64,000 nucleotides of DNA from a virus, in the IMG/VR virus record IMGVR_UViG_3300041964_000083, positions 1 through 64,000 of that record, one strand, 5' to 3'. The notes beneath the pieces are model-generated. The model did no database searches. It was not told where the DNA came from and was given only the letters and a program-made list of their open reading frames with translations. Shown piece after piece: positions 43,796 through 64,000 of the stretch. Each line of letters begins with the position of its first letter. The stretch's first letter is position 1. Position numbers and translations under genes: made by a program.

Positions 43796-44224
43796 ATGCC
43801 CAAAACTCTATCTGAGCATTATAAAAGTTACGATCACGCAACATCCCAAAAAATGACTGAACACAACAAGTCTGGTGGAGATGTTCGCAAGCCCGTGCGG
43901 AAGGTCGGCAACGCATCAACGCAAGGTAAATATGATCGCGCAAAATTTAATCATCGCAAAGCTATGCAAATTCTCAAGCGTGGCGACCCGTTAACTGATA
44001 AAGATGGGATGCCAACTCCTGCGGCTATGCAATTTAAGCGATGGGCAGAGAAGGTTCCGAAAACAATGGAAGACGTAAAGGGAATACGCGATCGCGCCGA
44101 GAAACAAAAAGCCTCCTACAGTAAAAAACTAGGTAAGGGTGATTGTGGCGGAACGTGTGCTTGCAATAGCTGCTCTGGGCGTAGTGACGCTTATTTAGCT
44201 GGATTTTGGAGCGTGTCTCGATGA
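43796..44224 (+). CDS. Basic protein ending in Cys cluster and RSDAYLAGF
   Basis: CGGTCACNSCSGRSDAYLAGF. Confidence 0.6.
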   Translation: MPKTLSEHYKSYDHATSQKMTEHNKSGGDVRKPVRKVGNASTQGKYDRAKFNHRKAMQILKRGDPLTDKDGMPTPAAMQFKRWAEKVPKTMEDVKGIRDRAEKQKASYSKKLGKGDCGGTCACNSCSGRSDAYLAGFWSVSR

Positions 44225-45399
44225 TTAATCGTTGGTTTCAAGAACAAATACTTGCGTACCTCGACCCAGATAATGCCAAGGCACTGGCACGATTAGATAG
44301 CAAAAGCCTTGAAGAGGAGTTTCAAACGGTTGTTCAACTCCTTGTTGATGCTCCTGATGACATCCGAATAGATGATGGGGTTGAGCCAACTGAAACATTG
44401 GTTGAGCAGATAAGCGATCGCGTAACATCCACGGTTATTAATCTGTTTGCGCCAGTTCTCGCCAAAATTGAATCCAAGTTATCTAGATCTGACAACGAAA
44501 CGTTGTCAACTGAAGAACTATTACCTGCAATTACCCGATCAGATGCTAACGTTCCTATTAAACGTGTAGTCAAACATCAAGGATTTGAGATTGGCATTAC
44601 GCACGAGAAGGATGCCATACGTTTCCCTTACTCGTTACCCCTATCGGCTGGGTATGGGCATATTCGACGCTCATACGGCGCAGCCGAGGACAAGAAGGCT
44701 ATCGATGTGTACTGGGGTGGGGATGAATCGGCTACAGATGTATATAGAGTGCGCCAACTCAACCCTGATACAGGGTTTGTAGCAGAACACGACTACTTCA
44801 TGGGGTTTGGTGGAGAAGATGCTCCTAAAGCGATTAGGGAGCTATATCTTCGACATTTAGGACAAAAGCGGTTTGGTGGGTTAGAGAAAGTAGATTTATC
44901 TCAGATTACCCAATATCAAGATAAACCATCAGAAGTGATTCCAGAAGGACATCATTGGGTAAAAAACGATAACGTCGTGGGTGGTGGTTACATCCGACGA
45001 AATTGGCGAGAACAAAAAAAAACTGACAACGATGCGTTGTTAACCGATTGGGATAATCTTCGCTACGATTCTCCAAATCAAGATGATTGGGATGATTCAG
45101 ACTACATAATTGACCACACAATGCAGCAATCGGGCAAAGTGTTCAATCGTTGGCTATCTAAGATTCAAGACTGGGTGGGCGAACAAGGAAGTTTAGAGAA
45201 TGCACGCGATCGCATTCATGAACTTTACCAACACCTTGACGGAAAACAACTCGCCCAAGTTTTAGAGCAAGGAATGACATTAGCAGATTTGAGCGGACGT
45301 TTAGCTGTGGTAACCGAAAGTGCCGAAGACGAAGAAGAAGCCAACACTGGCGCAGAAGAAGAAAGTCAAGACCGTGATGCATCGATGGAAAGAGGGTAA
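44221..45399 (+). CDS. Head-associated protein with inorganic-pyrophosphatase-like (InPase) domain and Mu-portal-like C-terminal segment
   Basis: GYGHIRR..AAED..AIDVY...Q.NPDTG...EH..FMGF; LY..LD..LAQVLEQGM..ADL.GR; several RxD motifs. Confidence 0.6.
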   Translation: MINRWFQEQILAYLDPDNAKALARLDSKSLEEEFQTVVQLLVDAPDDIRIDDGVEPTETLVEQISDRVTSTVINLFAPVLAKIESKLSRSDNETLSTEELLPAITRSDANVPIKRVVKHQGFEIGITHEKDAIRFPYSLPLSAGYGHIRRSYGAAEDKKAIDVYWGGDESATDVYRVRQLNPDTGFVAEHDYFMGFGGEDAPKAIRELYLRHLGQKRFGGLEKVDLSQITQYQDKPSEVIPEGHHWVKNDNVVGGGYIRRNWREQKKTDNDALLTDWDNLRYDSPNQDDWDDSDYIIDHTMQQSGKVFNRWLSKIQDWVGEQGSLENARDRIHELYQHLDGKQLAQVLEQGMTLADLSGRLAVVTESAEDEEEANTGAEEESQDRDASMERG

Positions 45400-47062
45400 G
45401 CTTCATGTCGGCAAGTCTGACAAAATCGTGACTTCACAAAAACAGGCGGTCGTGATCGCGTTAAATCAATCGGGGTTATCCAATCGCAAAAAAAAGGCTC
45501 ATAGAAAAGATGCTGATAATGCTATTAATATCAGTCTTGCGCTCAAGCGAATTATTGGTTCGGTATATCGCGATGGTGTAGACGCAGTTCTTTCTTATGA
45601 TACGGATGCGACAGGTGGGATATCAGGGTTATTCCGTGATGGTCGTGAAGTATTTGATTACAGTATTGCCCCAACCGGACAAATCATGTATGTTGAAGTT
45701 GCTGATGCGAGACGGGATGCTTACCTAGAAGGGTTTTATCTGGCAGGGCGAGTACCTGATTGCAGCATTAGTAATACGTATACAAAATCAGTTTTAGAGA
45801 CAGAGCTAACACGAATAGATACTAAAAAATCACGCAAATGTAGTAGTGGTAAGTCTTGTGGCGGTAGTTGTATCGCTAAAGGTTTTAGGTGTGTTCAACA
45901 ACTTGGTCAAGGCGAACAACTTGCAGTTAAACGAATATCTCAAACTATAAAAGCCCAAAAAAGCAAAAAACAATCTCCGTTAGATACATTGAAACGTCAT
46001 GCACCAATTCTTGCTGGGATTGCAGGCGCAGGGTTGTTAGGTGCTGCGGCAGTAGGAGTCGCAATGGCAAACCAAGGCAAGCCATCTCCTACAACTACGC
46101 CTGTTAAACCTAAAGAGTATTCACCTACAACTCCTGCACAAAATCCGACATCACAACCCAAGCCACAAGCACCAGCAACAAAAAAACAATCCGGTGTAGC
46201 TGACCCGTGGGATGGACCAGAACCCGATCCTTGGGAAGGGCAAGTCACGCCAAGACCAGATACACCTCAACCTAAAACAACTCCCAAAATTACACCAGGC
46301 GCTACACCACAATTAGTACCATCACCACAACCAAAACCCCAAAACGAGGAATTTCTTCGGGAATCCACAGCTAGTGAGGCTGAAGCTGCTAAAAACACGT
46401 TACTTAATAAAAATACCGGATATAAACTTAATGAAGCTCTGGATATCCAAGGATTTGATAGCGATACAGCAAGCAAGCTAAACCATACTGTTAATCAAAT
46501 TCATAAAACAGTAAATATTCCTAATTTGTCCAAAATCCCTGTTCAGCCGTCTACGGATGGTAAAGACGACGGTAATTATTATTCTGCAACTTGTACTGAC
46601 GGTAAAACAGGTGCGTTTTTAGGACGAGTACCATTAAAGATTGAACTAGATCCAAACGGTAATCGCAAAGAATCAGCGCTTGTTCACGAAGTTGGACATT
46701 TTATTCACCATTCTGCAATTGGCGATCCTAAAGAAGGGTATAAGGGCAAAATAAAGCCTGAAATGCAAGAGTTATTTAATGCTGTAAACAAGACAAATGC
46801 TGTAAAAAAACTCGATAAGTTAGTACGTACTGCTCGAAACCAAGATATTCGTGAGCGGGCAAATTATCTCAACCAACCAGAAGAATTGTTTGCTCGTGCT
46901 TTTACTCAATACATTGCTAAAAAATCTGGTTCTAAGATATTACAAGTGCAAGTCAAGATGGGGCAAAAAGGCAAAGCCGTTGAATACTGGGATGATCGCG
47001 AATTTAGTCGTACTGTAGAACCTGCAATGGATAAATTTGCTAAAGATATGGGATGGAGATAA
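45320..47062 (+). CDS. Modular cargo-family protein: DUF6496-like + shared N domain + Cys4 + TM + Pro-rich + HExxH zincin (LPD1-like)
   Basis: KVKTVMH..K.GKLH.GKS..V.S.KQA..IAL; CSSGKSCGGSCIAKGFRC; HEVGHFIH...YL..PEELFARAFTQY. Confidence 0.7.
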   Translation: MPKTKKKPTLAQKKKVKTVMHRWKEGKLHVGKSDKIVTSQKQAVVIALNQSGLSNRKKKAHRKDADNAINISLALKRIIGSVYRDGVDAVLSYDTDATGGISGLFRDGREVFDYSIAPTGQIMYVEVADARRDAYLEGFYLAGRVPDCSISNTYTKSVLETELTRIDTKKSRKCSSGKSCGGSCIAKGFRCVQQLGQGEQLAVKRISQTIKAQKSKKQSPLDTLKRHAPILAGIAGAGLLGAAAVGVAMANQGKPSPTTTPVKPKEYSPTTPAQNPTSQPKPQAPATKKQSGVADPWDGPEPDPWEGQVTPRPDTPQPKTTPKITPGATPQLVPSPQPKPQNEEFLRESTASEAEAAKNTLLNKNTGYKLNEALDIQGFDSDTASKLNHTVNQIHKTVNIPNLSKIPVQPSTDGKDDGNYYSATCTDGKTGAFLGRVPLKIELDPNGNRKESALVHEVGHFIHHSAIGDPKEGYKGKIKPEMQELFNAVNKTNAVKKLDKLVRTARNQDIRERANYLNQPEELFARAFTQYIAKKSGSKILQVQVKMGQKGKAVEYWDDREFSRTVEPAMDKFAKDMGWR

Positions 47063-47307
47063 TGTTTAACTCTATAGAACAGATACAACAAGATTATAAA
47101 ATTGGTGTTGGAACCGCCAGTTTTCTTTATACGCTTGGGTACATACCAGCGCTTGAACGTTTTCCTAAATCAATCCCGATAGAAGATTTAGTAAGTATTT
47201 TTCAAAAAGAAGAGACATTAACTCCAGAAGAATCCCAGCTTATGGTGCGATGGAATAGAGGTGATATTCATCGCAGTCGTGCTGTCAATGTGCTTGTGGA
47301 GGTTTAG
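47053..47307 (+). CDS. Hypothetical protein
   Basis: Small ORF after the zincin gene. Confidence 0.5.
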
Positions 47308-47312
47308 ATATT

Positions 47313-48203
47313 ATGACAAGTTCAGCTTACTATCAGAGTTTTGTTGAAACAACTAATAGGGTGAGACGCGATCGCATTAAAGAACGTACTGGTCGTGTGC
47401 GTTTTACAAAAGCAAAGTGCAAAAAAGGTAAGCCTTGTGGCGATATCTGCATACCTCAAAAAGCTAAATGTAATGAAGGAAATGTTCGCCCACCTAAATC
47501 ACAAGCAAATAGCATAGCCGCAAATGCTATTAGGGGTGCGGTGGCGGTAGCTGGTTTGGCTTTAGGGGCTAAAATGATTCAAGATATACAAAAAGAAGGC
47601 GAAGAAATAAAACAAGCTAAAGAAAAAGTAGCTGCTGCTGGCAAGTACAACGAAAATTTAAATAATTGGAATAAAAAATATGCAGGTAAACAATATACCG
47701 AGTTCACAACAGAAGAATGGGAACAAGCCCGTGATGAGTTTCAAAAGAATCGAGAAGAATTTAAGCGCAAAGCTGGCTTTGACCCAGATCCAGGATTTGA
47801 TGACCGATGGAAACAATCTGTAGGTTCAGGAAAACACAAACCAGATCCCGTCAAAAACGAACAAGGTAAAGCTTATTATGACGTGTTAGGTGTGCCTAAA
47901 AATGCGTCACCTCAACAAATCAAAGCGGCTTACCGCAAGCTTGCAGCACAGCTTCATCCGGATAATCGTGAAACAGGCAACCCAGATAAGTTCAGAGAAG
48001 CGACTGAAGCTTATGAAAAAGCTCAAGCACACAAAGGTTCTGCAAGAGGCAAAGGTAATCGCAAGGATAGCGTTTGGGACGACATTGAATCTGCTTATAA
48101 TGAGGCAATAGCACAACATCCAGCAATGCCCAGTAGCTACTGGTACAACTTTTCAACATACGACCCATACAACGCTTGGCGTAAGCCACTTGATTTGCTA
48201 TGA
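47313..48203 (+). CDS. Modular cargo-family protein: Cys4 + TM + J-domain
   Basis: [18 protein letters not shown]; [12 protein letters not shown]; [22 protein letters not shown]. Confidence 0.8.
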
Positions 48204-48550
48204 ATAGTGCCGCTTATTACACCAGTTTTATTCAGACAACTGCTAGGGTAAGACGTGATCGTGCCTTACGTGCTAAACCCAAATGTAAACCCGGAAATAA
48301 ACCTTGTGGGCAACGCTGCATCCCACAAGAAGACATATGTCGTCAAAATAGCGCGGGTATGCGAGGAGCTATTCCTGCTGCACTAGCAGCTACGGCTGTC
48401 CTAGCAACAGCTGGAACTTTGTATGCTAAAAACAAGCAACGCCAAAAAAGTCAAACTGAAGATAAAGAACTTGACGAAGGATGGAACCGTCTAGGACATG
48501 AAAGTACTGAAATTTTGAGAAGAGTGCAAGGAAAAAAGAAAAGAAGCTAG
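48200..48550 (+). CDS. Minimal cargo-family protein: Cys4 + TM
   Basis: [22 protein letters not shown]; [19 protein letters not shown]. Confidence 0.7.
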
Positions 48551-48568
48551 TTTTGAGTTATCTTTACA

Positions 48569-49318
48569 GTGCCAAAGCGACCAGAATATTTAAACCAACC
48601 ATTTCAGGAAGCAATTGATTACTTTAAAGACAAAGTACCTTTTCCAACGCAACGTGGGCAGAAAGTGCCTGAAGGTTTCCACGACCACGCTTTCACTATC
48701 ACAGGACTTACCAAAGGCAGTTTACTAGAAGATGCCAAGTGGCTTATTGAACGGGCAATGGAAGACGGTACAGGACTAGACGACTTCACCCGTCAATTTA
48801 ATCGCTTAATTGGGCGCAAGGGATGGCAACCTGGTGATCGCCGCATTCAAACTATTTTTGACACTAATATTCGTCGCAGTTATAGTGCAGGACGGCGTGA
48901 GCAAATGCTTGACCCCGACATAGCTGATCGTCGTCCGGGTTGGATGTGGATTCATAGGACGCCAGGGAAAGAAGAAGGTGGAACACCCAGACTACACCAC
49001 CAAGCGTTGCATCGCAAAGTATTTAGGAATACTGAGACATTTTGGGATAAAGCCTTTGCTCCCTGCGGATTTGGCTGTCGCTGTACTGTTATGACGTTAA
49101 GCGAGAAACAAATGGAACGCATGGGTGTTACGTATGAAACTCCACCTAATCCTAATACCATTGCAGAACCTGGGTTTAGGAGTGCCGCAGGTTCATCGCC
49201 TAAAGAATCGCGACAACAAATCCTAAAAGACGGATTAACGGGTCTTTCTCCTAGCATTAGAGAAGTGGTGGAAAAAGACCTTAGCGCCAAAGGAGTTTTG
49301 GACGATGGTAACGATTAG
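48569..49318 (+). CDS. Phage Mu F-like minor head morphogenesis protein
   Basis: PFQEAIDYF..K, AFTITG, RIQTIFDTN, R..H..L, FW....PCGFGCRC. Confidence 0.88.
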   Translation: MPKRPEYLNQPFQEAIDYFKDKVPFPTQRGQKVPEGFHDHAFTITGLTKGSLLEDAKWLIERAMEDGTGLDDFTRQFNRLIGRKGWQPGDRRIQTIFDTNIRRSYSAGRREQMLDPDIADRRPGWMWIHRTPGKEEGGTPRLHHQALHRKVFRNTETFWDKAFAPCGFGCRCTVMTLSEKQMERMGVTYETPPNPNTIAEPGFRSAAGSSPKESRQQILKDGLTGLSPSIREVVEKDLSAKGVLDDGND

Positions 49319-49760
49319 TGCTGCAATAAGCGATCGCGAACTCAAAGATAAACTTACCCAACTTCAGCAGGTTACAGCCGATTTAGGTAAACTCAAGCTT
49401 GTTGTAGGAACTCCTATCAAATACATGAAACAGCATCAGTTAGGTACAAATGGAATGACAAAACGAGAGTTTTTGGGGATTAGTCGAACTGATCGCCAAG
49501 AAATAATTGAAATTTTTGATGATGCTATAGCCGAGCCTGTACCAAGAGGTGCTGAAATTGCTTTACGTGAATGCGGTGAAACGTTACTCCTAAGTATAGA
49601 TACCCGTTGGGATAGAGAAATTGCGCCAGATGGTACACCTTGGAAGAAAAACACACCTTACACAAGAAGGTTAAAAAAAGCCAAAGGACGAATACTAAAA
49701 ACATTGCAATCTACAGGTCTAGCACGCGCAAGCATTAACTACCAAATCATTCGTGAGTAA
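49305..49760 (+). CDS. Mu gpG-like virion morphogenesis protein, apparently permuted
   Basis: VGT..Y...HQLG..REFLGIS precedes PDGTPW...L..TG...SI. Confidence 0.7.
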   Translation: MVTISAAISDRELKDKLTQLQQVTADLGKLKLVVGTPIKYMKQHQLGTNGMTKREFLGISRTDRQEIIEIFDDAIAEPVPRGAEIALRECGETLLLSIDTRWDREIAPDGTPWKKNTPYTRRLKKAKGRILKTLQSTGLARASINYQIIRE

Positions 49761-50409: not shown

Positions 50410-51969
50410 TTGGTGGCTACACGCTACGACTCAGGCAAACTTCGTAAAGCTCATAAAACTGCCGAAGGCGCATTGTTTTCGGAAGCTATTTATGCGCGAG
50501 ATGGCGTTTTAGAGTATCGCCTTCCCAACGGTGGGACAAGGCGAGAACTTCGCTTACCAGAAACCAACTACGACGAGGAAACGCTGACTAGTTACGGCTC
50601 AAAACCTATAACGGTCGAGCATCCACCTGTTTTAGTGACAGCGGATAATGCAAAAACTTATCAAGTTGGAGCATCAGATGCTGAACCAATGTATGAACGT
50701 CGCTACGAAAAGGGTTTTGTTGGCGGCATTGTTCGTATTTGGCATAGCGATGGCGTGAATGCTGTTGAGTGCAATGGGAAGAAAGAAGTATCCATTGGTT
50801 ACACCTGTGACATTGAACCCGTTGGTGGCATCTACTACCCAAAAACAGGCACTTATGTTGTTACCGATGCTGCTCCAGATAAGGGTGGTGAACGATTTGA
50901 CGCCATTCAGCGCAACGTTCGCGTAAACCATATTGCACTTACTTCTAAAGGTCGTGCTGGTCCAGAAGTCTGCTTGCGAATTGATAGCGAAGACGATGAT
51001 GTTGCCATCCTTGCCAAACCGTTTGAATTTCGCAAAGACGAATATGTAATTCCTGATTCTCCTTTACCTACTACTAACTCACCCACAAAACGCATGGCTG
51101 TCATCCGTATCGACAACATGGATTTTTCTGATGTGCCGGAAACTGTTGCGGTACTGATGAACCAAAAACTCAACGCTCTTGTAGAGCTTCAATCTCGCAA
51201 AGACGCTTTAGAGATTCAATTTCAAGAGCGCGAAGAACAACTCGATGAATTGCGAGAACAAGTAGACGAAGTTGCCGACGAGCGCGATCGCGAACGTGGT
51301 AGGGCTGACGCTTTAGAAATTCAACTCGCTGAAGCTGAAAGTAGGCAAGATGCTGCGATGCCATACAAAGGCAAGAAAAAAGGCAAAGCTCCCATTGTTG
51401 AGGTTGACGAAGACGAAGATTTTGACCCAGATGATATCGACGAGCTGGGTGACGATGACGAAGCTGACGATGAGGACGATGACGAAGATATGGAACCTAC
51501 GCCAATACCAAAGAAAAAAGGGGGACGGAAGGATTCTGATTTTGTTGATGTTGACCCTCATCAGCTGTTTGTTGCTTACGTTGATGCCAACAAAATTGTC
51601 CCTGGTTTGATTTCTGAAGACAAACTTGATTCGTTTGCCACACCTACCGATGTTCGTCGGCTGGCTATAGAAACGCTTAATCCCGATATTGACTTAACAA
51701 ATCGGAGTGATGCCTATGTTGATGGGGTTTATGACTTTATCAAATCTCAAAAGCTTCAAACTACCGAACAGTACCCGGAGCAGCTAGAACGTAACGACAG
51801 TATTAACACTACTTCCTATATCGGTTCTCATACACCACCTAGCGAAATTCAAACTGCGATCGCGCAAGCTCGCTCAAATAGCACTCCTACTTCCCCGCTG
51901 CAAGGTGCAGCAGAAAAGCAACGCGACCTCTACATGAATTCTTGGAACAAACCCCTCGACTTGGTTTAA
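50410..51969 (+). CDS. DUF2213-type prohead protease / scaffold
   Basis: ARDGVLEY...ELR.PE...PITVEHP, EVSIGY, DAIQRNVRVNHIAL..KGRAG...RID; acidic coiled-coil scaffold tail with RSDAY. Confidence 0.85.
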   Translation: MVATRYDSGKLRKAHKTAEGALFSEAIYARDGVLEYRLPNGGTRRELRLPETNYDEETLTSYGSKPITVEHPPVLVTADNAKTYQVGASDAEPMYERRYEKGFVGGIVRIWHSDGVNAVECNGKKEVSIGYTCDIEPVGGIYYPKTGTYVVTDAAPDKGGERFDAIQRNVRVNHIALTSKGRAGPEVCLRIDSEDDDVAILAKPFEFRKDEYVIPDSPLPTTNSPTKRMAVIRIDNMDFSDVPETVAVLMNQKLNALVELQSRKDALEIQFQEREEQLDELREQVDEVADERDRERGRADALEIQLAEAESRQDAAMPYKGKKKGKAPIVEVDEDEDFDPDDIDELGDDDEADDEDDDEDMEPTPIPKKKGGRKDSDFVDVDPHQLFVAYVDANKIVPGLISEDKLDSFATPTDVRRLAIETLNPDIDLTNRSDAYVDGVYDFIKSQKLQTTEQYPEQLERNDSINTTSYIGSHTPPSEIQTAIAQARSNSTPTSPLQGAAEKQRDLYMNSWNKPLDLV

Positions 51970-51972
51970 ATT

Positions 51973-54398: not shown

Positions 54399-54406
54399 GT
54401 TAAATC

Positions 54407-54646: not shown

Positions 54647-54832
54647 TTGATTTTTATGACTACTCAACAAGACAGAGAACACGCACAGAAGTTACTCGAT
54701 ATTCGTAATGCCGGACGCCCCAAGCGCACTATTGTCGGCAATACATTGGTAATTACCAACGGTTCAGATACGATCAATTTATCCATGTTTACCAGCAACG
54801 TTCAGTCAGAACGAACGGCAATATTCCGATGA
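54647..54832 (+). CDS. Hypothetical protein
   Basis: Short ORF with ATGA overlap; preceded by palindrome copy 54626-54644. Confidence 0.45.
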   Translation: MIFMTTQQDREHAQKLLDIRNAGRPKRTIVGNTLVITNGSDTINLSMFTSNVQSERTAIFR

Positions 54833-55248
54833 CTCGTGAAGAATTTCTACTCAGCTATCCTGAGTTTGCTCGTCTGAGAGCTTCTATAATTACAAGCACT
54901 ATAACGCTTGCTGAAATAAGCTGCCCTGTTGCCAAATGGGGGACAATGCAGCCGATCGCGGTTGGGTTATTTACAGCGCACACGCTATCAGCACGCTACA
55001 ACCAACTATCAGTCACTGCTTCAACAGCCGGTGCGATCGCGGCAGGCAATCAGGTGAGTTTTCCATCTGTTCCGACTAGTGGTGGTAGTGGTGCTGAGGA
55101 TGATGCGTTCTTGGGGATGACAACTTATGGTGTTCGGCTCAAACAGTACAAAGATCAGCTTGGAGAATTAGCAAAGCTAGGTATGTTAGGCGATGAAGCC
55201 AAGGGTTATCAAGAATCTGTATCGGCTAATACAGGATTTGCTTTCTGA
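54829..55248 (+). CDS. DUF4054-like head-tail adaptor
   Basis: F...YPEF...L.TAH.L...TTYG. Confidence 0.75.
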   Translation: MTREEFLLSYPEFARLRASIITSTITLAEISCPVAKWGTMQPIAVGLFTAHTLSARYNQLSVTASTAGAIAAGNQVSFPSVPTSGGSGAEDDAFLGMTTYGVRLKQYKDQLGELAKLGMLGDEAKGYQESVSANTGFAF

Positions 55249-55667
55249 TGTGGGGAGAACATCTCAGTGACATGATTGGGTTAAGAGATGAGCTAGCAGC
55301 TGAAGCTGAAGGACTCGACACAATTCGATCGCTTATCATCCGTCGTCGTAATCGAGACGATGAAACATTCCTGGAAATAACACCTAAGCCCCACATTACC
55401 TACACATCGCCACAAGAGAAGGGGTTAGAAGGCGCTACTCAAATTCAAGCCGCTAACCAGCAATTTCAGGTAAAGGGTATTAGTAAACGGTATTTGTACG
55501 GGGATTTAGTTGGGCAGCGACTTGACTATTGGATAGATGGCGTTGTTGTAGACGAACAGCTTACCGAAGGTATTCAGTGTAGCTTTGTCTCGATTGAGGA
55601 GAAGAGTACTACGTGGGATATGGTGTTAGAGAGCAAAATAGGAGAGCAGCAAGTCTATGTTTATTGA
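55248..55667 (+). CDS. Putative head-closure protein
   Basis: Position after adaptor; TGATG coupling. Confidence 0.5.
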
Positions 55668-55872
55668 CGACTCACACCTTAAGAAATCGCTATTTAGTGA
55701 CATCTGCACCAAATGCAAGCACTTAGACTTAGAATCTGCCAAAACAGATAAGAAAATCTGTACAGCATTCCCCGATGGTATCCCATTTGAAATATGGTCG
55801 GGTAAGAATGACCACAAGAAACCCTATCCAGGTGATCGCGGTATTCAATTTAAGCTCAAAACCATTAAATGA
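55657..55872 (+). CDS. Small Cys/His-rich phage protein
   Basis: CTKCKH...[25 protein letters not shown]. Confidence 0.65.
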
Positions 55873-57311
55873 ACGCAGCAACTCTCCCTAAACTTAGCCC
55901 TCAGCAACGCATTCGATTAATGCTCAAGCGTGTTATCGAGAGCGGATTTACGTCAGGGATTAATGGGGTGTTGAGTTTTGATTTGGAAGAAGATGGAAAG
56001 ATAACGGGAAAGTTTTTAGAGAATCGTCAGGTTTATGACTTCGCGATTACACCTAACAATATTTTGAGTTATGTAGAATCAAAAGTTAGGAGTGATGCTT
56101 ACCTTATTGGCTACTACGGAGATAGCGGTTTATTAAAATATGGAGCAAGACTAGACACAAGTAGTAGCAAGCGTCGTTGTGTAGCAGGTAAGCCATGCGG
56201 AAAGACTTGTATTACCAAAGGCAAGAAGTGTTCGATTAAGCTTGGCAATGTCGCAGCTAAAACAATGGGTGCAATTCGCACTCAATTAAAATCTGCACCG
56301 CCTGACACAAATAAGCAAGATGTTGCCAAAAAATATAATGTAACTCCATTAATAGCAGCCGGTGCTATAGCAGGTGCTGCTGTAATTGGGATGTCCGCAG
56401 CTAGCTATATGGCATTTCGTTCTGAATATCGAGAAGGATTTAAGGAGTCTGCCGAAAAGGTAAAAACAGCTGTTAAAGAGAAGCTTGACAAGGATTCTGA
56501 TACTACACCGCTTAAGACAGGCTTGAATGGTGACAAAGACATTGATGCTGATGAAATAACACTTGTTGTTGGTGGTTTTGCTGGACAAGATGGAAAAAAT
56601 TCTGAAAAATGGGCAAAACAATTACTAGGTAATGATGGATTATTTGATAATCATTATGTAGAGCCTATTGAAAATAAAGAATTTGATGTAGATTTTCAAG
56701 AACATATTGAAAACACTAAAAAAGGTCAGTTTAGTCCTGGAACAATTACAGGAAATAATAAAATTTTAGCAATGGAAATGTCTTGGGCAAAGATGCTCAA
56801 TACAGCTATTGGTAAAAAACATAACCCTGTTTCAGTGAACCTTGCAACCCAAGCTTATTATTATCACCAAAAATATCCAGATAAACCTATTAACTTGATG
56901 GGTTATTCGGCGGGTGGGATGGTTACACACGAAGCTGCGGAGATATTAAAAGAGTTGGGTGTTACTAAAAATGTAAAAACCGCTAATTTTGGTAGCCCTT
57001 ATTGGGGGTTGACAGAAAAAGTTGGAGATTCAATTACATTTGCATCTGATAACGATCAGAATATGACAGGAATGCCCATTCGCGATCGCGTAGAAGTAAG
57101 TTCAGTACATAATCATTTTGATTATTTAAAAAACCCTACGGTTAGAAAACAACTCAAAGGATTCTTGGGTGGTAAAGCCGTATCTGGTGAAAAAATTAGC
57201 AAAGAGCAAGAAGAGCGCATTAAAAAAGCTCAGTCACGACGGGAAAAACGTAATCCTGAAGAATTGAAGCGAAAATTAGAAGAGCGCAATAGACGGAGAA
57301 AACAAAACTAA
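55869..57311 (+). CDS. Modular cargo-family protein: N domain + Cys4 + TM + alpha/beta hydrolase
   Basis: RSDAYLIGY; [21 protein letters not shown]; VGGF; GYSAGG; FGSP; D...H. Confidence 0.8.
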
Positions 57312-59569
57312 TGGTTGCAACTTCAGTTTCTACACCGTCTAGACAACAGACCGCATTAGCTTTAAAAAAGATTATTGAGTCTTCATTTACTAGCGGTATA
57401 GATGCTGTACTTAGTTTTGCGTTGGATGAAGACAATACGATTACAGGTAAATTTTTAGAAAATCGTCAAGTTTATACTTTTGAGATATCTCCAAAAAACA
57501 GAATTCGGTATGTTGAAGCACAAGCAAAAAGCGATGCATATCTAGCGGGTTTTGTTGAAGTTATGCCTATCCGCTTAGACAAAATGAACGGAGGTAAGAA
57601 GAAGCGCTGTATTGTTGGTAAAGCGTGTGGTGGTACTTGTATAGCAAAAGGAAAGGTGTGCGATCGCGAACTATCACCTAAAGCTGCCCAATTAAGTAAC
57701 GCAGTGCGAAAGGTGTTAGGTGGCAGCACAACTAAACCACCCGAACAGAAATTTCCAAAGATTAATCCAGGTCTTGTCGGTGCAGCTGTATTTGCAGCTG
57801 GGGTATTAGGTGTGCCTGTTGCTGGATATTTAGCAACAAGAGCAACATACCGCGCAGGCTTTAGTGAATCTGCGGAGATTGCTAAAAAAGAAGCTGAAAA
57901 ATTAGCAACTCAAAATTATAAATGGACTAAACGAGACAAAAAGCTTATTGCAGCTTCAAAGTTTAAAGGCGAAGGTGTTCCTGAACCTAAAAGTGAAGGA
58001 GAGCCAGCAATTCCAGATGTACTCTACGGTGGAACTCCTAATGAACGGTATTTTTTAGGGGAAGTCGGAAAACGCTACGGCAAAGAACCAAGCGAAATGT
58101 ACAAAAAAGCTAAGCAAATTACGTTAGTTGCTAATGGGTTTGCCGGAGAAGACAACACGGACTCAGGCGTCAGTGTTTCAGGCGATTTGATGGGTAACGA
58201 TGGTCTATTTGACGATCACCACGTTGTTCCTATTGATGCGTCTGGTTTTTCCCCTAATTTCATGAAAGGTGAAGAAATTGCCAAAAACGTTTTAGAAAAA
58301 GTATTTAAAGAAGGTCGTAACCCCGTAGCCGTCAGAATGGCGTCACACGCCTACGCATTTAGTAAAAAACATCCAGATGTACCTATTAACCTAATTGGTT
58401 ATTCTGGTGCTGGAATGGCAACCCATGAGGCACAGGAAATATTAAAACAAATGGGTGTTAAGGTACGTGTTGCTAACTTTGGCTCACCTTACGGGGGGTT
58501 AACTGAAAAAGTAGGTGACTCGGTAACATTTAACAGCCCATCAGATTTTGTTACTCGTCATACACCTGTTCGAGACGAAATTAATGTTCCTCATGTAGAT
58601 GGACATTTTAAATATTTATTAGATAGCAAAGTCAGAGGAAAACTTCGGGATTACTTTGACGGCAAGAAAATTAAAGGTGAGCCAACATCTCTTGAGCAAG
58701 AAAGACACGCTCAAAATGTACTGAAAAAAGAGACATCGGCGTTTGCTGAAAAACAAGCTCGGTTAAGAGAAATTGACCGTAAGCGGAAAGAGCGTGGAGC
58801 AAAACGTAGTAAAAAAAAACTAGATAGCATCAAACCAAATTGTTCACCTAAAAGTAAATTGTGTGGCACTCGCTGTGTTCCTAAAGAATACAATTGCAAA
58901 CAAACTAAACAAAAACCATTCAATGCAACAAATGCTGTTTCTATAGGTGTTGGAATAGCTGCTACTGTGGGACTTGGGGCAGCTATAGCCATTCCGGCAT
59001 CGATGGCTCTACATACAGAAATTGCAAAAAATCGTGCTGAAACTGTAAAACGCAACGTTGAAAAAGAAGAAGATGCAATTAAAGACTCACCTGTTGAGCA
59101 TTTTGTAATTATTAATCCCAAAACAGGAAAGACAATAGCAAAAGGTTCTAGCAACGAAGCAACAAGAGTGGATATTCCTACTGAAGCTATGGGTAAAATG
59201 AAGGGCGCTATTTTTACCCATAATCATCCCAAAGCTCTTAATTTTCCAGAATCTCATCCTCAAGGTAAAGGTACTAGTTTTTCTGAAGCTGATATTCGTA
59301 TTTCTTGTCAAATGAATGTTAAAGAGATGCGTGCTGTGAGCCGAAAATATCGTCATAGCTTAAGCGTAGGTGCTAAGGGTTGGGGGGATTGGGATAATCA
59401 AGTAAAACCTATATACGACAAACACGACGAACAACTTCTAAAGGAATGTCAAGATCATATACTTTCTCGCAAATACAAAGCCGCAGAGCTAAACGCAATT
59501 TATCACCACGAACTCAATAAGCGTGTAGCTAAAGATATGGGATGGACTTACATACGAACACCTATTTAA
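57311..59569 (+). CDS. Modular cargo polyprotein: N domain + Cys4 + TM + hydrolase // Cys4 + TM + JAB/MPN-like
   Basis: KSDAYLAGF; two Cys4 modules; GYSGAG; EH...THNHP...SFSEADI. Confidence 0.8.
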   Translation: MVATSVSTPSRQQTALALKKIIESSFTSGIDAVLSFALDEDNTITGKFLENRQVYTFEISPKNRIRYVEAQAKSDAYLAGFVEVMPIRLDKMNGGKKKRCIVGKACGGTCIAKGKVCDRELSPKAAQLSNAVRKVLGGSTTKPPEQKFPKINPGLVGAAVFAAGVLGVPVAGYLATRATYRAGFSESAEIAKKEAEKLATQNYKWTKRDKKLIAASKFKGEGVPEPKSEGEPAIPDVLYGGTPNERYFLGEVGKRYGKEPSEMYKKAKQITLVANGFAGEDNTDSGVSVSGDLMGNDGLFDDHHVVPIDASGFSPNFMKGEEIAKNVLEKVFKEGRNPVAVRMASHAYAFSKKHPDVPINLIGYSGAGMATHEAQEILKQMGVKVRVANFGSPYGGLTEKVGDSVTFNSPSDFVTRHTPVRDEINVPHVDGHFKYLLDSKVRGKLRDYFDGKKIKGEPTSLEQERHAQNVLKKETSAFAEKQARLREIDRKRKERGAKRSKKKLDSIKPNCSPKSKLCGTRCVPKEYNCKQTKQKPFNATNAVSIGVGIAATVGLGAAIAIPASMALHTEIAKNRAETVKRNVEKEEDAIKDSPVEHFVIINPKTGKTIAKGSSNEATRVDIPTEAMGKMKGAIFTHNHPKALNFPESHPQGKGTSFSEADIRISCQMNVKEMRAVSRKYRHSLSVGAKGWGDWDNQVKPIYDKHDEQLLKECQDHILSRKYKAAELNAIYHHELNKRVAKDMGWTYIRTPI

Positions 59570-59650
59570 CAACATTGATTCAATTTTGAGTAGTTTTTAT
59601 AACCATCACGTACACGACCCTAAACTTAAGAAGTCGCGCTATGTCTTGTT

Positions 59651-60415
59651 TTGGCAGATTTATCAGACACCTACGTTGAGGCGTTACTCTTGCAGTTGGC
59701 TAGGGGTGATTCTGCTTGTAATGCTACTGAGCGTGTGCGATCGCGTGCTTATCGTCAAGGATTTTTGAGAATTGACCGCACAACCCCTAACTGTTCGCCC
59801 AAAAGCAAGTTGTGCGGAAATGCTTGTGTGCCTAAAACCAAAAAATGCAAATCGACAACAAAGCTATCTAGAGCAAGCTCACCAGACTTTGTTAGACAGA
59901 GAGTTGAGGCTGAAGAAGACAAACTAAAAGATCTTCCATACGAACACTTGTTAATAATCGATTCTAAGACTGGCGATGTACTAGCTCACCGTACTGACAA
60001 TCACCCTACACAGGTAGGTTTTGATGCTAGCGACTTTCCCAAGATAAAAGGCGCGATCGTTACCCACAATCATCCAAATGCTTACGGGTTCCCACCTAGC
60101 CATCCTGCTTCTAAAGGTATAAGTCTATCCCCTCCTGATATTCAAGTGGCTTGTACTTTTCGTCCAAAAGAAATGCGGGCTGTAAGCGCAGGCTATCGAC
60201 ACGTTCTTAGTCCGGGTGAAAAAGGTTGGGGGGATTGGAACTGGCGGGTAAAGCCAGTTTACGAGAAACACGAACGTCAAGTGATGAATGAATTTCAAAC
60301 AGATTTAATTTTAGGGAGAAAAGCAGCGTCACAGCTAGAAGCAGATTACCACCATGAAATAAATACTCGAACCGCAAAAGAGTTGGGATGGAAATACGAA
60401 AGGCAGGTTATTTAG
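59651..60415 (+). CDS. Modular cargo-family protein: Cys4 + JAB/MPN-like (paralogue of 57311 C-terminus)
   Basis: RID..CSPKSKLCGNACVPKTKKC; YEH...THNHP...SLSPPDI. Confidence 0.78.
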   Translation: MADLSDTYVEALLLQLARGDSACNATERVRSRAYRQGFLRIDRTTPNCSPKSKLCGNACVPKTKKCKSTTKLSRASSPDFVRQRVEAEEDKLKDLPYEHLLIIDSKTGDVLAHRTDNHPTQVGFDASDFPKIKGAIVTHNHPNAYGFPPSHPASKGISLSPPDIQVACTFRPKEMRAVSAGYRHVLSPGEKGWGDWNWRVKPVYEKHERQVMNEFQTDLILGRKAASQLEADYHHEINTRTAKELGWKYERQVI

Positions 60416-61018
60416 ATGGAGTTTAGAAAGCTTGTTCAACCCATAGCAGAAGCGATCGCGCTAACTTTTGATGCTCCTGTGGATGAAATTTTAACAGCTA
60501 ACCTTGATTCTGAAGGTATTGTGTTTGGACAACTTTTGTCTGAAGGTAAATTTTATTCTTATGCATCAAATGGTAATGAAGTTGTTACAAGCTACCACCA
60601 AGACGCAACTGATTATTTAGATGAATACGCAAAAGGTTTTTTAAATAATATAAATATTCATGTTGATTCATCAAATACTTATGATTACGCTTGTGGCTTC
60701 TTCCGAGTTGATGCACAAGTAAAATGTAGTCAAGGTAATCAACCTTGTGGAAATCGCTGTATTTCTAGAAAAAAGCGATGTCGTAAAAATATGAAAAACC
60801 CTGCTAAAAACGCGATGAGACAAGGACTTGTTAGTCTTAAAAATCCAGCTAATCAAGCATTTGGAGCAGCCGCAGGTATTGCAGGAACTGTAGGAACTGC
60901 TGTTTTAATGGGTGCGGGTATGGCTGCGGGTTCCGCACTTTACGAAAACAGAGAAACAATTATGCGAGATGTTCAATCAGGTATCGACAAAGCAAAGCAA
61001 CGTATTCAAGGCAAGTAA
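60416..61018 (+). CDS. Modular cargo-family protein: N domain + Cys4 + TM
   Basis: RVD..CSQGNQPCGNRCISRKKRC; AFGAAAGIAGTVGTAVLMGAG. Confidence 0.75.
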   Translation: MEFRKLVQPIAEAIALTFDAPVDEILTANLDSEGIVFGQLLSEGKFYSYASNGNEVVTSYHQDATDYLDEYAKGFLNNINIHVDSSNTYDYACGFFRVDAQVKCSQGNQPCGNRCISRKKRCRKNMKNPAKNAMRQGLVSLKNPANQAFGAAAGIAGTVGTAVLMGAGMAAGSALYENRETIMRDVQSGIDKAKQRIQGK

Positions 61019-61043
61019 GAATTACGAAAGGAAGGTTATTTAA

Positions 61044-62075
61044 ATGAACGACAGAGAAATTACACAACCAATTGCTGAAGCAATTACGCTAACATTTGAT
61101 GCTCCTGTTGATGCAGTATTAACCGCGAACCTAGATTCTGATGGTGTTTTGTTTGGTCAAATAATGTCCGGGGGAAACTTTTACTCATACATTGCCGATT
61201 CCGACACAATCACTACTTATTATCATCCCGAAGAAACTGAGTATCTAAACGAATACGCTCATGCCGTACTCGACAACATAGGTATTCATACTGATGCTTG
61301 GGAGACATACGATTATGCATTGGGGTTTTTCCGTGTTGATGCACAGATGAGATGCAAACCAGGAAACAAACCCTGTGGTAGGCGTTGTATCCCTCAGCAA
61401 ATGAAATGTAGAAGTGCAATGGGCGGTGGGGCGCAAGCAAAAATGCGACAAGGGCGTGCTAACTTACGCGCTCCTGGCGCAGGTGCAATTGCCGCTGGCG
61501 TTGTTGGTGCTGCGGCATTAGCTGCGGGTGGTGCTGCGGCTTATCAAAACAGAGAAGAGATTGCTAAAGGTGCAAAAAAAATTGGGCGACAGGTACAAAA
61601 AACCGCACTTGTAGCAAAGCGGGAAGTAGAAGGGAAAGCCGCAGAACTTGCTAGCAATGTCAACAAAGGTGTAGAGGTGGCTAAAGAAAACATTCAACAA
61701 GCTGCAAAGAAAACGGGTCAAGCGGCACGAATAGCTGGCAAGAAAGCGACACGCGCTGTAGAACGTACAAAAAAAGAAGTCGATAAAAATTACAAAGAAA
61801 CAAAAAAAGAAGTCGATAAGAAATACCATGAAACTCGTAAAGCGGCTATAAGAACAGCTAAAGAAGTAGGAGTCGCTGGCAAAAGACTTCAAAAACAAGC
61901 TGAACGGAAAGTAGCTGAAGTTACAAAAGGTGCTGAAAATACAGGTAAGAAGATTCAACAACAAGCACGCAAAAGCAAGAAGCGTGGTGAACGTTATGCT
62001 GCTGACCCAGAAAGAGTACAGAAAGTGGGTAAACGCTTAGGCGATCGCTGGGCAAGAAATATGGGAGCAAAATAA
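61044..62075 (+). CDS. Modular cargo-family protein: N domain + Cys4 + TM + Lys/Ala-rich helical repeats
   Basis: Paralogue of 60416 N-terminus; [19 protein letters not shown]; TKKEVDKNYKE TKKEVDKKYHE. Confidence 0.75.
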   Translation: MNDREITQPIAEAITLTFDAPVDAVLTANLDSDGVLFGQIMSGGNFYSYIADSDTITTYYHPEETEYLNEYAHAVLDNIGIHTDAWETYDYALGFFRVDAQMRCKPGNKPCGRRCIPQQMKCRSAMGGGAQAKMRQGRANLRAPGAGAIAAGVVGAAALAAGGAAAYQNREEIAKGAKKIGRQVQKTALVAKREVEGKAAELASNVNKGVEVAKENIQQAAKKTGQAARIAGKKATRAVERTKKEVDKNYKETKKEVDKKYHETRKAAIRTAKEVGVAGKRLQKQAERKVAEVTKGAENTGKKIQQQARKSKKRGERYAADPERVQKVGKRLGDRWARNMGAK

Positions 62076-64000
62076 TGATTGCTGTTCGCTATGATCGTGC
62101 CAAACCTAATTGCAAAAAAGGTAAGCCTTGCGGTAGCGTTTGCATTCCGCAAAAAGCTAAATGTCGTAAAGAATCTCCACAAGAAACTAATACAGGTGGG
62201 GATGGCGCAATCAAAGCAGCGGGCTGGGCAGTTGCGGCTGCCGCAACTGCCGCATTAATTGGTGTGCCTGTAGCCACTTACGCTGGTGTGCGATCGCGTT
62301 ATCGAGAAGGGTTTAAAGAATCTGCCAAAATGGCACAGTCAATGGCAAAGGATATAGAACCTATCAATGTAAAGGAAAAACAGCACTCTGTTGTATTTTG
62401 TGTTGGTGGAATGGACTATGGGCATGAAAACACTAATCCTAATATTAGTGGCAGAATAATTTCTTTAGCCGTTAATAAGTCTTTATCCCAAAAAGATAAA
62501 GGACTAAAGACAATTCCTATTTCTACACAAGGTAGTAATTTAGATAAGAAAGAGAAACCAGAAGGTATTCATCAATTTGTTGCTGATGGATTTAAGCGAA
62601 CTGTTTACAAAAATGTGGTAGAGCAAGGTAGAAATAAAGCTGCGGTAAGGCTTGCTGCACAGGCGATCGCGTATCACGATAAATACCCAGATAAGCAAAT
62701 CGTCATGTTTGGTACTTCTATGGGTGGGATGATTGTCAATGAAGCACAGGAGATACTAAAACAAGCCAAACCGTCTATGAAGAGCAAGCTTAAGTCAATG
62801 ACGGTTGGAACTCCTTATTTTGGGCTAACTGAGCCTTGGGGAGAAACGACAGAGATTGCTGCACACGAAGACAAATTTACAACCGTTTTACCGACGCGAT
62901 CAAAGACTAAGTTATTTAATCTCAAGCACGTAAACACTAAATCTACGGATGTGCTTCATGGACATTTGTTAAGTGATTATTTTCAGTCAGATGAGGTGAA
63001 AAAACATTTATCAGATTTTATTTATAAAGATGTTAAAACAACTAAAAATACCAAAAAAGACTCAGCTAACGAACCTAAATGTCGGACAGGACAACCATGT
63101 GGGGAGATTTGCATACCTAAAACACATAAATGCAGAATAGGTTCTTATTCTCCTGCAAAAAAAGCAAAAGTTGAAGCTGTAAAAAGAAAACGACGACAAG
63201 TCGCATTAATGAAATTTTCTGCCGCAATAGGCGTACTTGTGGCATTTGAAGCTGCGGTTGTTGCCACGAATTACGCAATTGACAGAAGGAATGAGCAAAC
63301 AATAGCTGAAGAAAAAGAGGTTAAAGACGATTTTCAATCAGATGTCGACAATTTTGTAGATTTTCGTTCCGAAATGAGAGATAAGGCTCGATCATGGGGT
63401 GTTGGTCGAGGATATACGGATATTGAGCTTGTAGATGATTGGTATTGGGGCTTTCCTCCTACAGGGTATATGCAAGAACCTATTCAAAGTGAAAACCAAG
63501 AACTAGAACAAGTTAAAAAATCACTACAAGACATGGAAAAGAAGTGGCGCGATCGCGCTAACGTTGAGCATTTTAACAATATCCCTGATACAGCGCATAG
63601 CAAGAATAGAAAAAAAGCTACTACAGATTCTATTGCTGTCACCAATCCACATTATCAAAAACTTATATTTCAATTAAAAACTATTCTAAATCGTGTTTAT
63701 ACAGATGGTATTGATCATTTTATAAAAGTAGAAGTTGATAAGGCTAATACTATAACTGGGTTATTCAGAGATGGTACAAAAATATTAGAGTTTACGATTA
63801 AAGGTAACGACATTACTTATAAAAAAGCAGGATTTAAAAACAAAAAAGACTCAACTTATTATGATTCTTTGGCATTAGAGTTAACGTTACGTAGTGATGC
63901 GATCAAGAAAAAAGATAAATGCGTAAAGGGTATATCTTGTGGGGCAGCTTGTGTTGCTTCTAATAAATCATGTCGATTGAAAGCTAACGCGATCGCGTCA
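62075..64000 (+). CDS. Modular cargo polyprotein with at least three Cys4 modules and a GxSxG hydrolase (3'-truncated; not in ORF track)
   Basis: ATG 62075 [30 protein letters not shown]; GTSMGG at 62711; KKDSANEPKCRTGQPCG at 63080; N-domain copy then RSDAIKKKDKCVKGISCG at 63920; all in one frame. Confidence 0.8.
   Translation, partial: MIAVRYDRAKPNCKKGKPCGSVCIPQKAKCRKESPQETNTGGDGAIKAAGWAVAAAATAALIGVPVATYAGVRSRYREGFKESAKMAQSMAKDIEPINVKEKQHSVVFCVGGMDYGHENTNPNISGRIISLAVNKSLSQKDKGLKTIPISTQGSNLDKKEKPEGIHQFVADGFKRTVYKNVVEQGRNKAAVRLAAQAIAYHDKYPDKQIVMFGTSMGGMIVNEAQEILKQAKPSMKSKLKSMTVGTPYFGLTEPWGETTEIAAHEDKFTTVLPTRSKTKLFNLKHVNTKSTDVLHGHLLSDYFQSDEVKKHLSDFIYKDVKTTKNTKKDSANEPKCRTGQPCGEICIPKTHKCRIGSYSPAKKAKVEAVKRKRRQVALMKFSAAIGVLVAFEAAVVATNYAIDRRNEQTIAEEKEVKDDFQSDVDNFVDFRSEMRDKARSWGVGRGYTDIELVDDWYWGFPPTGYMQEPIQSENQELEQVKKSLQDMEKKWRDRANVEHFNNIPDTAHSKNRKKATTDSIAVTNPHYQKLIFQLKTILNRVYTDGIDHFIKVEVDKANTITGLFRDGTKILEFTIKGNDITYKKAGFKNKKDSTYYDSLALELTLRSDAIKKKDKCVKGISCGAACVASNKSCRLKANAIAS

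Follow-up and report, generated by a model that had tools for sequence, protein, structure and literature searches.

Podovirus ejection proteins (gp14 to gp16 of T7; gp7, gp16, and gp20 of P22) and tape measure proteins with hydrophobic segments contain latent membrane-active segments that leave the virion together with the DNA. The internal proteins and Alt of phage T4 carry an N-terminal capsid targeting sequence that is removed by the prohead protease at (L/I)-x-E. Inner body proteins of phiKZ-type phages are processed by gp175 at (S/A/G)-x-E, and phage P1 has the Dar/Ddr head proteins. To our knowledge, virion-packaged effectors act first in the host, and their loading signals are largely unknown outside T4, P1, N4, and phiKZ. 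MuF-fused polymorphic toxins of phages and prophages were described by Zhang et al. in 2012 (PMC3482391). Polyvalent proteins of phages and conjugative elements were described by Iyer, Burroughs, Anand, de Souza, and Aravind in 2017, in a study that discusses DdrB of P1 and proposes that polyvalent proteins are processed by peptidases (PMC5512222). Here, we analyzed a 64-kb stretch of viral DNA (“the window”), the first part of the 153,952-bp IMG/VR record IMGVR_UViG_3300041964_000083, which is estimated to be 98% complete; the whole record was scanned. Nine genes in the window (cargo genes 1 to 9) share a unit containing four cysteines (the Cys4 knuckle) and encode alpha/beta hydrolases, JAB/RadC-like domains, a zincin with LPD1, J-domains, and a basic helical protein, with a ParB-like domain further along the genome. 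We conclude that these genes are probably a lineage-specific expansion of virion-packaged, polyvalent-type effectors, each joined to a shared and undescribed carrier unit. The unit consists of a leader (an N-terminal domain of ~95 residues, the N-domain, or its last helix), an exposed R-x-D, a basic stretch, and the small, three-stranded knuckle. In this lineage it is followed by a Gly/Ala helix that is marginally hydrophobic and glycine-zipper-like.

The locus resembles polyvalent systems in that several unrelated effector domains occur per protein or array, the genes lie within the head and packaging module, and both packaging and peptidase processing are predicted. Signature domains are also shared: InPase and MuF are neighbors of the cargo genes; the cargo includes a zincin with LPD1 (below the cutoff), a ParB-like domain, and RadC/JAB-like domains; and the Cys4 proteins of relatives carry ART, ART-PolyVal, LPD1, and InPase. 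However, no Pfam LPD model from Iyer et al. matches the N-domain or the knuckle, and the effectors are spread here over nine genes, each with its own carrier unit plus, in this lineage, a hydrophobic helix. The main text of PMC5512222 mentions neither cysteine nor transmembrane, ribbon, or knuckle. MuF-fused toxins likewise have swappable C-terminal toxin or enzyme domains, and a conserved N-terminal part is predicted to bring them into the head. Their carrier, however, is the MuF domain itself; here, MuF has a gene of its own, and the leader, R-x-D, and Cys4 knuckle form the carrier. As in T4, unrelated proteins would enter the procapsid core by means of a leader, which would be cut after an acidic residue ([RH]-x-D is the site that we propose); unlike in T4, the leader can be a folded 95-residue domain, and a Cys4 knuckle and helix follow the candidate site. 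There is no sequence similarity between the two leaders. Similarly, the phiKZ and P1 proteins are paralogous head-internal families with shared N-terminal parts, a common protease motif, and head-packaged cargo, but their folds, protease family, and motif are different, and they have no Cys4 knuckle or Gly/Ala helix. With ejection proteins, the cargo shares latent membrane-active segments that would leave with the DNA, a gene position after the head-completion genes, and, in some cases, enzymatic domains. No homology was detected to ejection proteins, which comprise a small set of fixed structural components, whereas here a dozen paralogous carriers bear interchangeable enzymes.

We found no description of the module in the literature on DUF2213, MuF, polyvalent, and cargo proteins, and the N-domain with the Cys4 unit matched no Pfam or NCBIfam family, only unnamed PHROGs, weakly. 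The original prediction, made from the letters of the window, recognized no described system with this architecture. That statement stands for the module, for which there is neither a curated family nor a paper that we could find, but not for the kind of system, since polyvalent and other virion-delivered effectors are known. We conclude that the carrier module is undescribed and widespread, that the strategy it serves is known, and that this is not a new kind of system.

Translation and scanning of the window located twelve copies of the module in nine plus-strand genes, with first-Cys codons at exactly the twelve positions predicted. Three further copies lie past the window, with first-Cys codons at 65414 (the fourth in cargo gene 9, Lys replacing the Gly), 82415, and 127872. 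The strict pattern, C-x5/6-C-G-x2-C-[IV]-x5-C, matched 14 times in the real genome, always on the plus strand and in long open reading frames (ORFs), and not once in any of 20 genome shuffles, which rules out chance or low complexity as the origin of the copies. Recent gene conversion among the modules of this genome was not seen, the best DNA identity being ~80% over 60 to 70 nucleotides (nt). In an alignment of the modules, the four Cys are invariant and an upstream Asp is nearly so. Every copy in the window has (R/K)-x-D 4 to 16 residues upstream, and 10 of the 11 complete copies are followed by a Gly/Ala helix (the copy at 59792 has none), both as predicted. The helical segment starts 8 to 36 residues past the knuckle, is uncharged, and is 20 to 29 residues long, with 35 to 76% Gly plus Ala, a 19-residue Kyte-Doolittle mean of 1.5 to 2.1, and an abundance of small-xxx-small spacing. 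The original prediction had missed the conserved N-domain, which precedes seven copies; short-leader forms retain only its last helix, as (D/S)AYxxGF or AYYxSF. The N-domain and knuckle also occur together inside giant proteins, as an internal junction.

The nearest isolate to the phage of the window is Aphanizomenon phage vB_AphaS-CL131 (50% identity in the capsid protein), and the next is Planktothrix phage PaV-LD. The motif occurs at least seven times in CL131, in gp044, gp045, gp047, and gp048, and tblastn shows all four to be homologous to cargo genes of the window; gp047 is annotated as similar to a tape measure domain protein. Liquid chromatography-tandem mass spectrometry of CsCl-purified CL131 virions identified 23 virion proteins, and these include gp044, gp045, gp047, and gp048 (PMC6293099, Table S5). 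In the same table, gp045 is represented by 33 peptides and 123 peptide-spectrum matches (PSMs), gp048 by 105 peptides and 175 PSMs, and the capsid protein by 86 PSMs, so that gp045 is among the most abundant virion proteins by spectral count (PMC6293099). The predicted family of modular virion proteins is therefore borne out by published proteomics for all four of its CL131 counterparts. Since the matching proteins of a related phage are present in purified particles, the unit most likely marks proteins that are packed into the virion and sent to the host.

Net charge is +7 to +13 ahead of the helix and about 0 to +4 past it, which by the positive-inside rule corresponds to an N-in, single-pass topology. 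This distribution would also suit late proteins that are anchored in the host membrane and are not part of the virion, with functions in lysis, superinfection exclusion, or membrane remodeling; they would be inserted cotranslationally, with the basic Cys4 side in the cytoplasm. However, the detection of four CL131 module proteins in purified virions (two with spectral counts that rank near the top), the embedding of the genes in the virion module, and the only marginally hydrophobic, Gly/Ala-rich character of the helices make this explanation highly improbable. We favor virion-packaged effectors on a shared carrier.

The C-terminal parts of the cargo proteins are unrelated to one another, and their assignment in the original prediction (three hydrolases, two HNHP domains, an HExxH zincin, a J-domain, Lys-rich repeats, and in one case almost nothing) proved correct. 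All nine genes and their knuckles are on the plus strand. Cargo gene 1 (45320 to 47062; 580 amino acids [aa]) encodes an N-domain, RID (45812 to 45820), the knuckle (45839 to 45892), the Gly/Ala-rich helix (46001 to 46069), a Pro-rich linker, and a zincin with LPD1 next to its HExxH motif. LPD1 scored 25.4 bits, just below the cutoff of 27 bits, and the protein matched phrog_4529, “minor head protein and DNA pilot” (E = 4e-16). Cargo gene 2 (47313 to 48203; 296 aa) has a short AYYxSF leader, RRD (47364 to 47372), the knuckle (47418 to 47471), the helix (47511 to 47570), a J-domain (Pfam DnaJ, E = 7.7e-15), and the C-terminal tail WRKPLDLL. Cargo gene 3 (48200 to 48550; 116 aa) has a leader, RRD (48251 to 48259), the knuckle (48284 to 48340), the helix (48365 to 48427), and almost nothing more. 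Beyond the head genes, cargo gene 4 (55869 to 57311; 480 aa) encodes an N-domain, RLD (56148 to 56156), the knuckle (56178 to 56231), the helix (56340 to 56417), and a GxSxG alpha/beta hydrolase. Cargo gene 5 (57311 to 59569; 752 aa) has two modules, the first with an N-domain, RLD (57572 to 57580), a knuckle (57608 to 57661), a helix (57767 to 57838), and a hydrolase, and the second with KLD (58817 to 58825), a knuckle (58841 to 58897), a helix (58934 to 59011), and a JAB/RadC-like domain.

Cargo gene 6 (59651 to 60415; 254 aa) has an AYRQGF leader, RID (59768 to 59776), a knuckle (59792 to 59848) that is the sole complete copy in the window without the helix, and a JAB/RadC-like domain with invariant HNHP and SxSxxD. 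Cargo gene 7 (60416 to 61018; 200 aa) comprises an N-domain, RVD (60704 to 60712), the knuckle (60725 to 60781), and the helix (60857 to 60943). Cargo gene 8 (61044 to 62075; 343 aa), the counterpart of CL131 gp045, has an N-domain, RVD (61332 to 61340), the knuckle (61353 to 61409), the helix (61470 to 61544), and Lys-rich helical repeats. Cargo gene 9 (62075 to 66724 of the record, the window ending at 64000; ~1,549 aa), the counterpart of CL131 gp048, has four modules, two hydrolase domains, and a C-terminal J-domain. Its first module has RYD (62087 to 62095), a knuckle (62111 to 62164), and a helix (62216 to 62290), and its second has KKD (63053 to 63061), a knuckle (63080 to 63133), and a helix (63200 to 63268). 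The third knuckle (63920 to 63973) follows an internal N-domain and RSD, and the next hydrophobic segment lies ~138 residues on, past the window.

At least two unrelated effector domains thus occur in one chain in gene 5 (hydrolase and JAB-like) and gene 9 (two hydrolases and a J-domain), and several other members have one effector. The three GxSxG alpha/beta-hydrolase regions gave weak Pfam matches to Cutinase, Thioesterase, and Lipase. The two HNHP domains, in genes 5 and 6, are paralogous and have no Pfam match; all 16 homologues keep HNHP and SxSxxD unchanged, although their spacer is longer than that of RadC. An AlphaFold model of this domain, built from the 16 homologues (pLDDT 81), had JAMM1, RadC, or Rpn11-type MPN proteins as all ten of its best Foldseek matches, with probabilities of 0.84 to 1.0 and modest E values of 4e-3 to 3e-2, and a search of the ESM Atlas gave weak leads to Prok-JAB (0.82) and RadC (0.81). 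No MuF domain was matched by Pfam in any of the nine cargo proteins. As predicted, the effector parts are swappable, the Pfam domains differing both among the nine genes and among the Cys4 proteins of other viral contigs. Outside the window, the copy at 82415 lies in a gene (record 82076 to 84139) that encodes an N-domain, RLD, Cys4, a helix, and a C-terminal part with HGHHR that is ParB-like and matches the C-terminal extension of giant portal proteins (phrog_21). A small plus-strand ORF (record 127581 to 127970), far from virion genes, has at its end a bare Cys4 that lacks both R-x-D and a helix.

We searched a profile of the module against 1.84 billion representative proteins. It matched 763 protein clusters at E ≤ 1e-3 and 88 at E ≤ 1e-10, with up to seven stretches per protein; many of the matches are proteins of 1,000 to 3,600 residues with three to seven copies. 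With hundreds of protein clusters sharing it, the module is strongly supported as a genuine, conserved element. A degenerate DNA pattern found at least 120 stretches in IMG/VR, and among the matches listed, ~60 of 80 had the motif in frame in a long ORF. Pfam domains in 49 Cys4 proteins of other viral contigs include LPD1 (5 proteins), ADP-ribosyltransferases (4 + 3 + 1, including ART and ART-PolyVal), protein kinase (4), and Mu or lambda portals (3 + 1), as well as Endonuclease I, SNase, DnaJ, InPase, and HNH; portals carry the knuckle on their C-terminal side. The neighbors of these proteins, up to 6 kb away, are mostly genes for MuF, terminase, Mu G-like protein, portal, capsid, and cement. 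The predicted position in head-gene neighborhoods, here on both sides of the head genes, is therefore seen in other phages also. Because the fusion partners of the knuckle include portals, ADP-ribosyltransferases, kinases, nucleases, LPD1, and J-domains, and MuF, portal, and terminase genes are nearby, we assign it to an undescribed carrier or junction module of the polyvalent class. The proposed co-occurrence with DUF2213 was found only in part (10 of 37 motif-bearing contigs).

Among isolates, the module was found only in CL131 and PaV-LD, the latter with two copies of the strict pattern. When Cys4 proteins of viral contigs were compared to cultured phages by tblastn, only the portal part matched for one query and nothing matched for another. 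Close relatives of the cargo genes are present in assemblies of heterocystous cyanobacteria, namely, Nostoc linckia z4 (scaffold15.1) and Nostoc sp. NMS7; one of the encoded proteins has 1,749 aa and five copies. The contigs are likely of phage or prophage origin, which gives a hint of the hosts that the lineage infects. The hydrophobic helix was seen in this phage, CL131, and the Nostoc-associated contigs. It belongs to this cyanophage lineage, and the Cys4 knuckle is far wider in distribution than its pairing with the helix. Small signal-peptide proteins of bacteria that contain the knuckle usually have two of them each; none has a name, and a periplasmic function in metal or redox chemistry is possible. 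In one metagenomic protein of 527 aa, ten knuckles stand in tandem, with extra Cys and a hydrophobic segment at the C terminus, in a setting unlike that of the phage proteins. The original prediction had the Cys4 tag and the membrane helix together direct ejection or membrane insertion. Since it is present in bacterial signal-peptide proteins, the knuckle is a general mini-domain and cannot itself be the signal, at least not alone.

We modeled the protein of cargo gene 7 with AlphaFold from an alignment of 52 sequences (mean pLDDT 82, pTM 0.68). In the model, the N-domain has one helix packed against four strands, with two more helices after them (pLDDT >90), and the four Cys lie on three short strands (residues 108 to 125; pLDDT >80) with a helix after them. 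Confidence falls to 67 at residues 91 to 100, which hold R-V-D, and to <50 in the Gly/Ala segment. A conserved R-x-D in what is modeled as an exposed linker is compatible with cleavage at this site or with docking. The spacing of the knuckle (x5/6, x3, x6) is not the usual CxxC pair of a zinc ribbon or zinc knuckle, and the occurrence of the motif in secreted proteins, where disulfides are the likelier bond, makes these as likely as zinc; binding of zinc, like insertion into a membrane, can only be surmised. Foldseek searches of the PDB with the module model gave nothing at E ≤ 1e-3, and a wide search with VIA-align gave no convincing fold (best Z 4.7, latexin/cystatin-like, for the N-domain). 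Kinship of the knuckle with LDL-receptor class A repeats or conotoxins was rejected, the best PDB sequence E values of 0.22 to 0.5 being taken as chance among Cys-rich peptides.

Three observations suggest, at the level of sequence, that R-x-D may be a cleavage site. First, 12 DUF2213 homologues from this phage, CL131, PaV-LD, and viral contigs have an N-terminal domain with an invariant His-Pro, a near-invariant Ser, and a near-invariant Asn-His, and in 11 of the 12 this conserved domain ends in h-[RH]-h-D-[SGA] (LRIDS here). This is the look expected of a protease-scaffold fusion with a self-cleavage site. Second, R-x-D lies 3 to 13 residues from the start in 8 of 9 related PF09950 capsid proteins. 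Third, when viral contigs of 20 kb or longer were compared, 17 of 18 knuckles had R-x-D ahead of them if the contig also carried DUF2213, versus 6 of 36 if DUF2213 was not found; 4 of those 6 are on one fragment from a DUF2213 lineage. The Fisher P value for this link, 3e-8, is not corrected for relatedness and overstates the case because the sequences are related; the link is seen in at least two distant lineages, the cyanophage group and a “TGY” group. In phage Pa193, which has DUF2213, the capsid protein is modeled only from residue 66, and the first 93 residues of the portal are missing and “may be cleaved” (PMC11456595). No other prohead protease (Peptidase_S78 or ClpP) was found in the genome. 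PHROGs labels the DUF2213 homologues “head maturation protease”.

The DUF2213 scaffold tail, W-x-x-P-L-x-L, is kept between this phage (WNKPLDLV) and CL131 (WQQPLSL) and recurs at the end of the J-domain protein of cargo gene 2 and in part at the end of CL131 gp047. This resemblance of cargo to scaffold is a weak lead. Homology of the N-domain to the scaffold was not supported past a short SDAY helix in a profile comparison.

From these data, we propose the mechanism that we consider most likely. The leader would dock cargo on the DUF2213 scaffold core during procapsid assembly, and the cargo proteins would end up in the particle, a part for which there are published CL131 data. The DUF2213 N-terminal domain or, less likely, the packaged zincin with LPD1 may then cut after the Asp of [RH]-x-D, removing the leader and dividing multimodule polyproteins into single effectors that start with a basic Cys4 knuckle. 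These effectors would leave the virion along with the DNA, and in this lineage the Gly/Ala-rich helix may hold them at, or insert them into, the host cytoplasmic membrane. The knuckle itself would be a stabilizing mini-domain, with zinc or disulfides, rather than the signal. In a more far-reaching reading, the leader, [RH]-x-D, and Cys4 would form a portable capsid-loading and processing tag that coevolved with the DUF2213 scaffold or protease; whatever protein follows the tag would be loaded into the head, released by a cut at the Asp, and injected, and the helix version would anchor effectors in the host membrane. We put the portable tag forward tentatively and consider it possible rather than probable.

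Several observations weigh against the proposed mechanism. In phages without DUF2213, the knuckle is preceded by h-D-F-A, with no Arg, and since this flank keeps the Asp where DUF2213 is absent, the Asp may be structural. The published CL131 proteomics reports coverage and not N termini. The authors of the Pa193 study regard the DUF2213 protein as scaffold material retained in the virion, leave its cleavage open, and name no protease (PMC11456595), and the PHROGs name is an annotation label only. The likeness between N-domain and scaffold is confined to the short SDAY helix (2.4 bits, E = 0.027 in a two-sequence search). Most copies on other viral contigs are without a hydrophobic helix, and bare knuckles, without leader or helix, occur in the small signal-peptide proteins of Caulobacterales, sphingomonads, and Pseudobdellovibrio. 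Lastly, because the array adjoins the tape measure gene, a place in the tail lumen is possible.

The first of these points also bears on an alternative in which the knuckle and its Asp flank are a sturdy interdomain joint, reused in domain shuffling, that is neither cut nor used for targeting; packaging would then be brought about by something else, for example MuF, contacts with the portal, or the effector domains. Retention of the flanking Asp where DUF2213 is absent and the occurrence of the knuckle in unrelated settings (secreted bacterial proteins, the protein with ten tandem copies, and phages of several head types) would both be explained. However, in DUF2213 phages the flank is specifically R-x-D, as at the DUF2213 boundary and the capsid N terminus; the unit stands at the very N terminus of small proteins with little else, such as that of gene 48200 (116 aa), where it would be a joint without anything to join; and the leader helix is kept even in short forms. 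We consider an uncut joint unlikely.

The main rival to head-packaged cargo is a position in the tail lumen. The cargo proteins would then be components of an ejectosome that travel with the tape measure protein, the glycine-zipper helices oligomerizing into a DNA channel across the host envelope, the enzymes being accessory (envelope-digesting hydrolases), and the Cys4 unit serving as an assembly joint. Gene order permits this: the head-completion genes are followed by six of the nine cargo genes and these, in turn, by the gene for a 3,821-aa tape measure protein (record 66725 to 78190, directly after cargo gene 9 and just past the window), and relatives have the same order. Four metagenomic relatives were checked, and in all four a Cys4 giant follows the head-completion genes and precedes a tape-measure-sized giant; the PF09950 capsid gene is upstream in the two contigs that are long enough to reach it, and the Cys4 giants carry J-domains and kinase-like and hydrolase-like parts. 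In addition, an uncharged helix rich in small-xxx-small spacing follows 12 of 15 modules, and CL131 gp047 is annotated as tape measure domain-like. Tape measure proteins and the ejection proteins of T7 and P22 do combine hydrophobic segments with enzymes.

Portal fusions and cytoplasm-type enzymes oppose this position. The InPase and MuF genes, whose CL131 counterparts belong to the portal fusion, flank three of the members; where other phages have the knuckle on a portal, it is attached to the C-terminal side, which faces the head interior. J-domain, JAB/RadC, ParB-like, kinase, and ADP-ribosyltransferase domains suggest targets in the cytoplasm, and the helix is absent from most relatives. 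We consider a tail-lumen function improbable and retain the view that the nine genes encode polyvalent-type effectors on a shared carrier. At the usual 0.15 nm of tail per tape measure residue, the 3,821-aa protein would imply a tail well over 500 nm long.

The unit is short, recognizable, and present in at least 763 protein clusters, and it flags virion-packaged effectors. Since it is also widespread and one relative provides proteomic proof of virion location, it could be used to annotate many “hypothetical” giant proteins of uncultured phages. Our findings suggest [RH]-x-D as a candidate cleavage motif for the widespread DUF2213 head type, with DUF2213 as the candidate protease. In engineering, the unit might be tested as a tag that carries foreign proteins into phage heads. 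The helix-bearing version of cyanophages raises the possibility that membrane-anchored hydrolases and J-domains have a role during DNA entry into filamentous cyanobacteria. If the unit is indeed a portable tag, this version would define a class of injected effectors (lipase-like hydrolases, J-domains, and JAB enzymes) that act at the site of entry.

The left 43 kb of the window contains replication genes (ribonucleotide reductase, DnaB, DNA polymerase III alpha, and methylases), and the virion module starts at ~43.7 kb. Its order is the InPase protein, three Cys4 genes, MuF, Mu G-like, DUF2213, cement, PF09950 capsid, DUF4054, and six Cys4 genes; the features given here are all on the plus strand unless noted. 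In CL131, the “portal” gp012 is a 1,393-aa fusion of portal, InPase, and MuF, and tblastn comparison showed that this protein is split in the phage of the window, with three Cys4 genes between the InPase and MuF parts. The InPase-domain virion protein (44206 to 45399; InPase 59 bits, cutoff 26.8) matches residues 637 to 924 of gp012, and the MuF-like minor head protein (48569 to 49318; MuF 42.8 bits, cutoff 29.6) matches residues 931 to 1169. The portal domain has its own gene outside the window, on the minus strand (record 121833 to 123285), ~75 kb from the head module. The DUF2213 (PF09979) scaffold and candidate maturation protease (50410 to 51969) has LRIDS at the end of its conserved domain, an SDAY helix near its C terminus, and a tail that ends in WNKPLDLV. 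The major capsid protein (PF09950; 52890 to 53825) has R-T-D at residues 11 to 13, and the DUF4054 head-completion (adaptor-like) protein (54829 to 55248) is encoded by the last recognizable head gene ahead of the cargo array.

Three smaller features were noted. A 162-aa ORF (43736 to 44224, plus strand) ends in another Cys cluster, C-x3-C-x-C-x2-C, followed by RSDAYLAGF; given its 19-nt overlap with the start of the InPase ORF, it may be a fragment of the portal-InPase-MuF protein that was split off or frameshifted. A gene for a 71-aa Cys-rich protein (55657 to 55872, plus strand) of phrog_33375 (function unknown) comes after the last head-completion gene and before cargo gene 4, with which the array opens. 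In the replication region, a 905-aa protein (19465 to 22182, plus strand) combines C-5 cytosine and Dam-type adenine methyltransferase domains.

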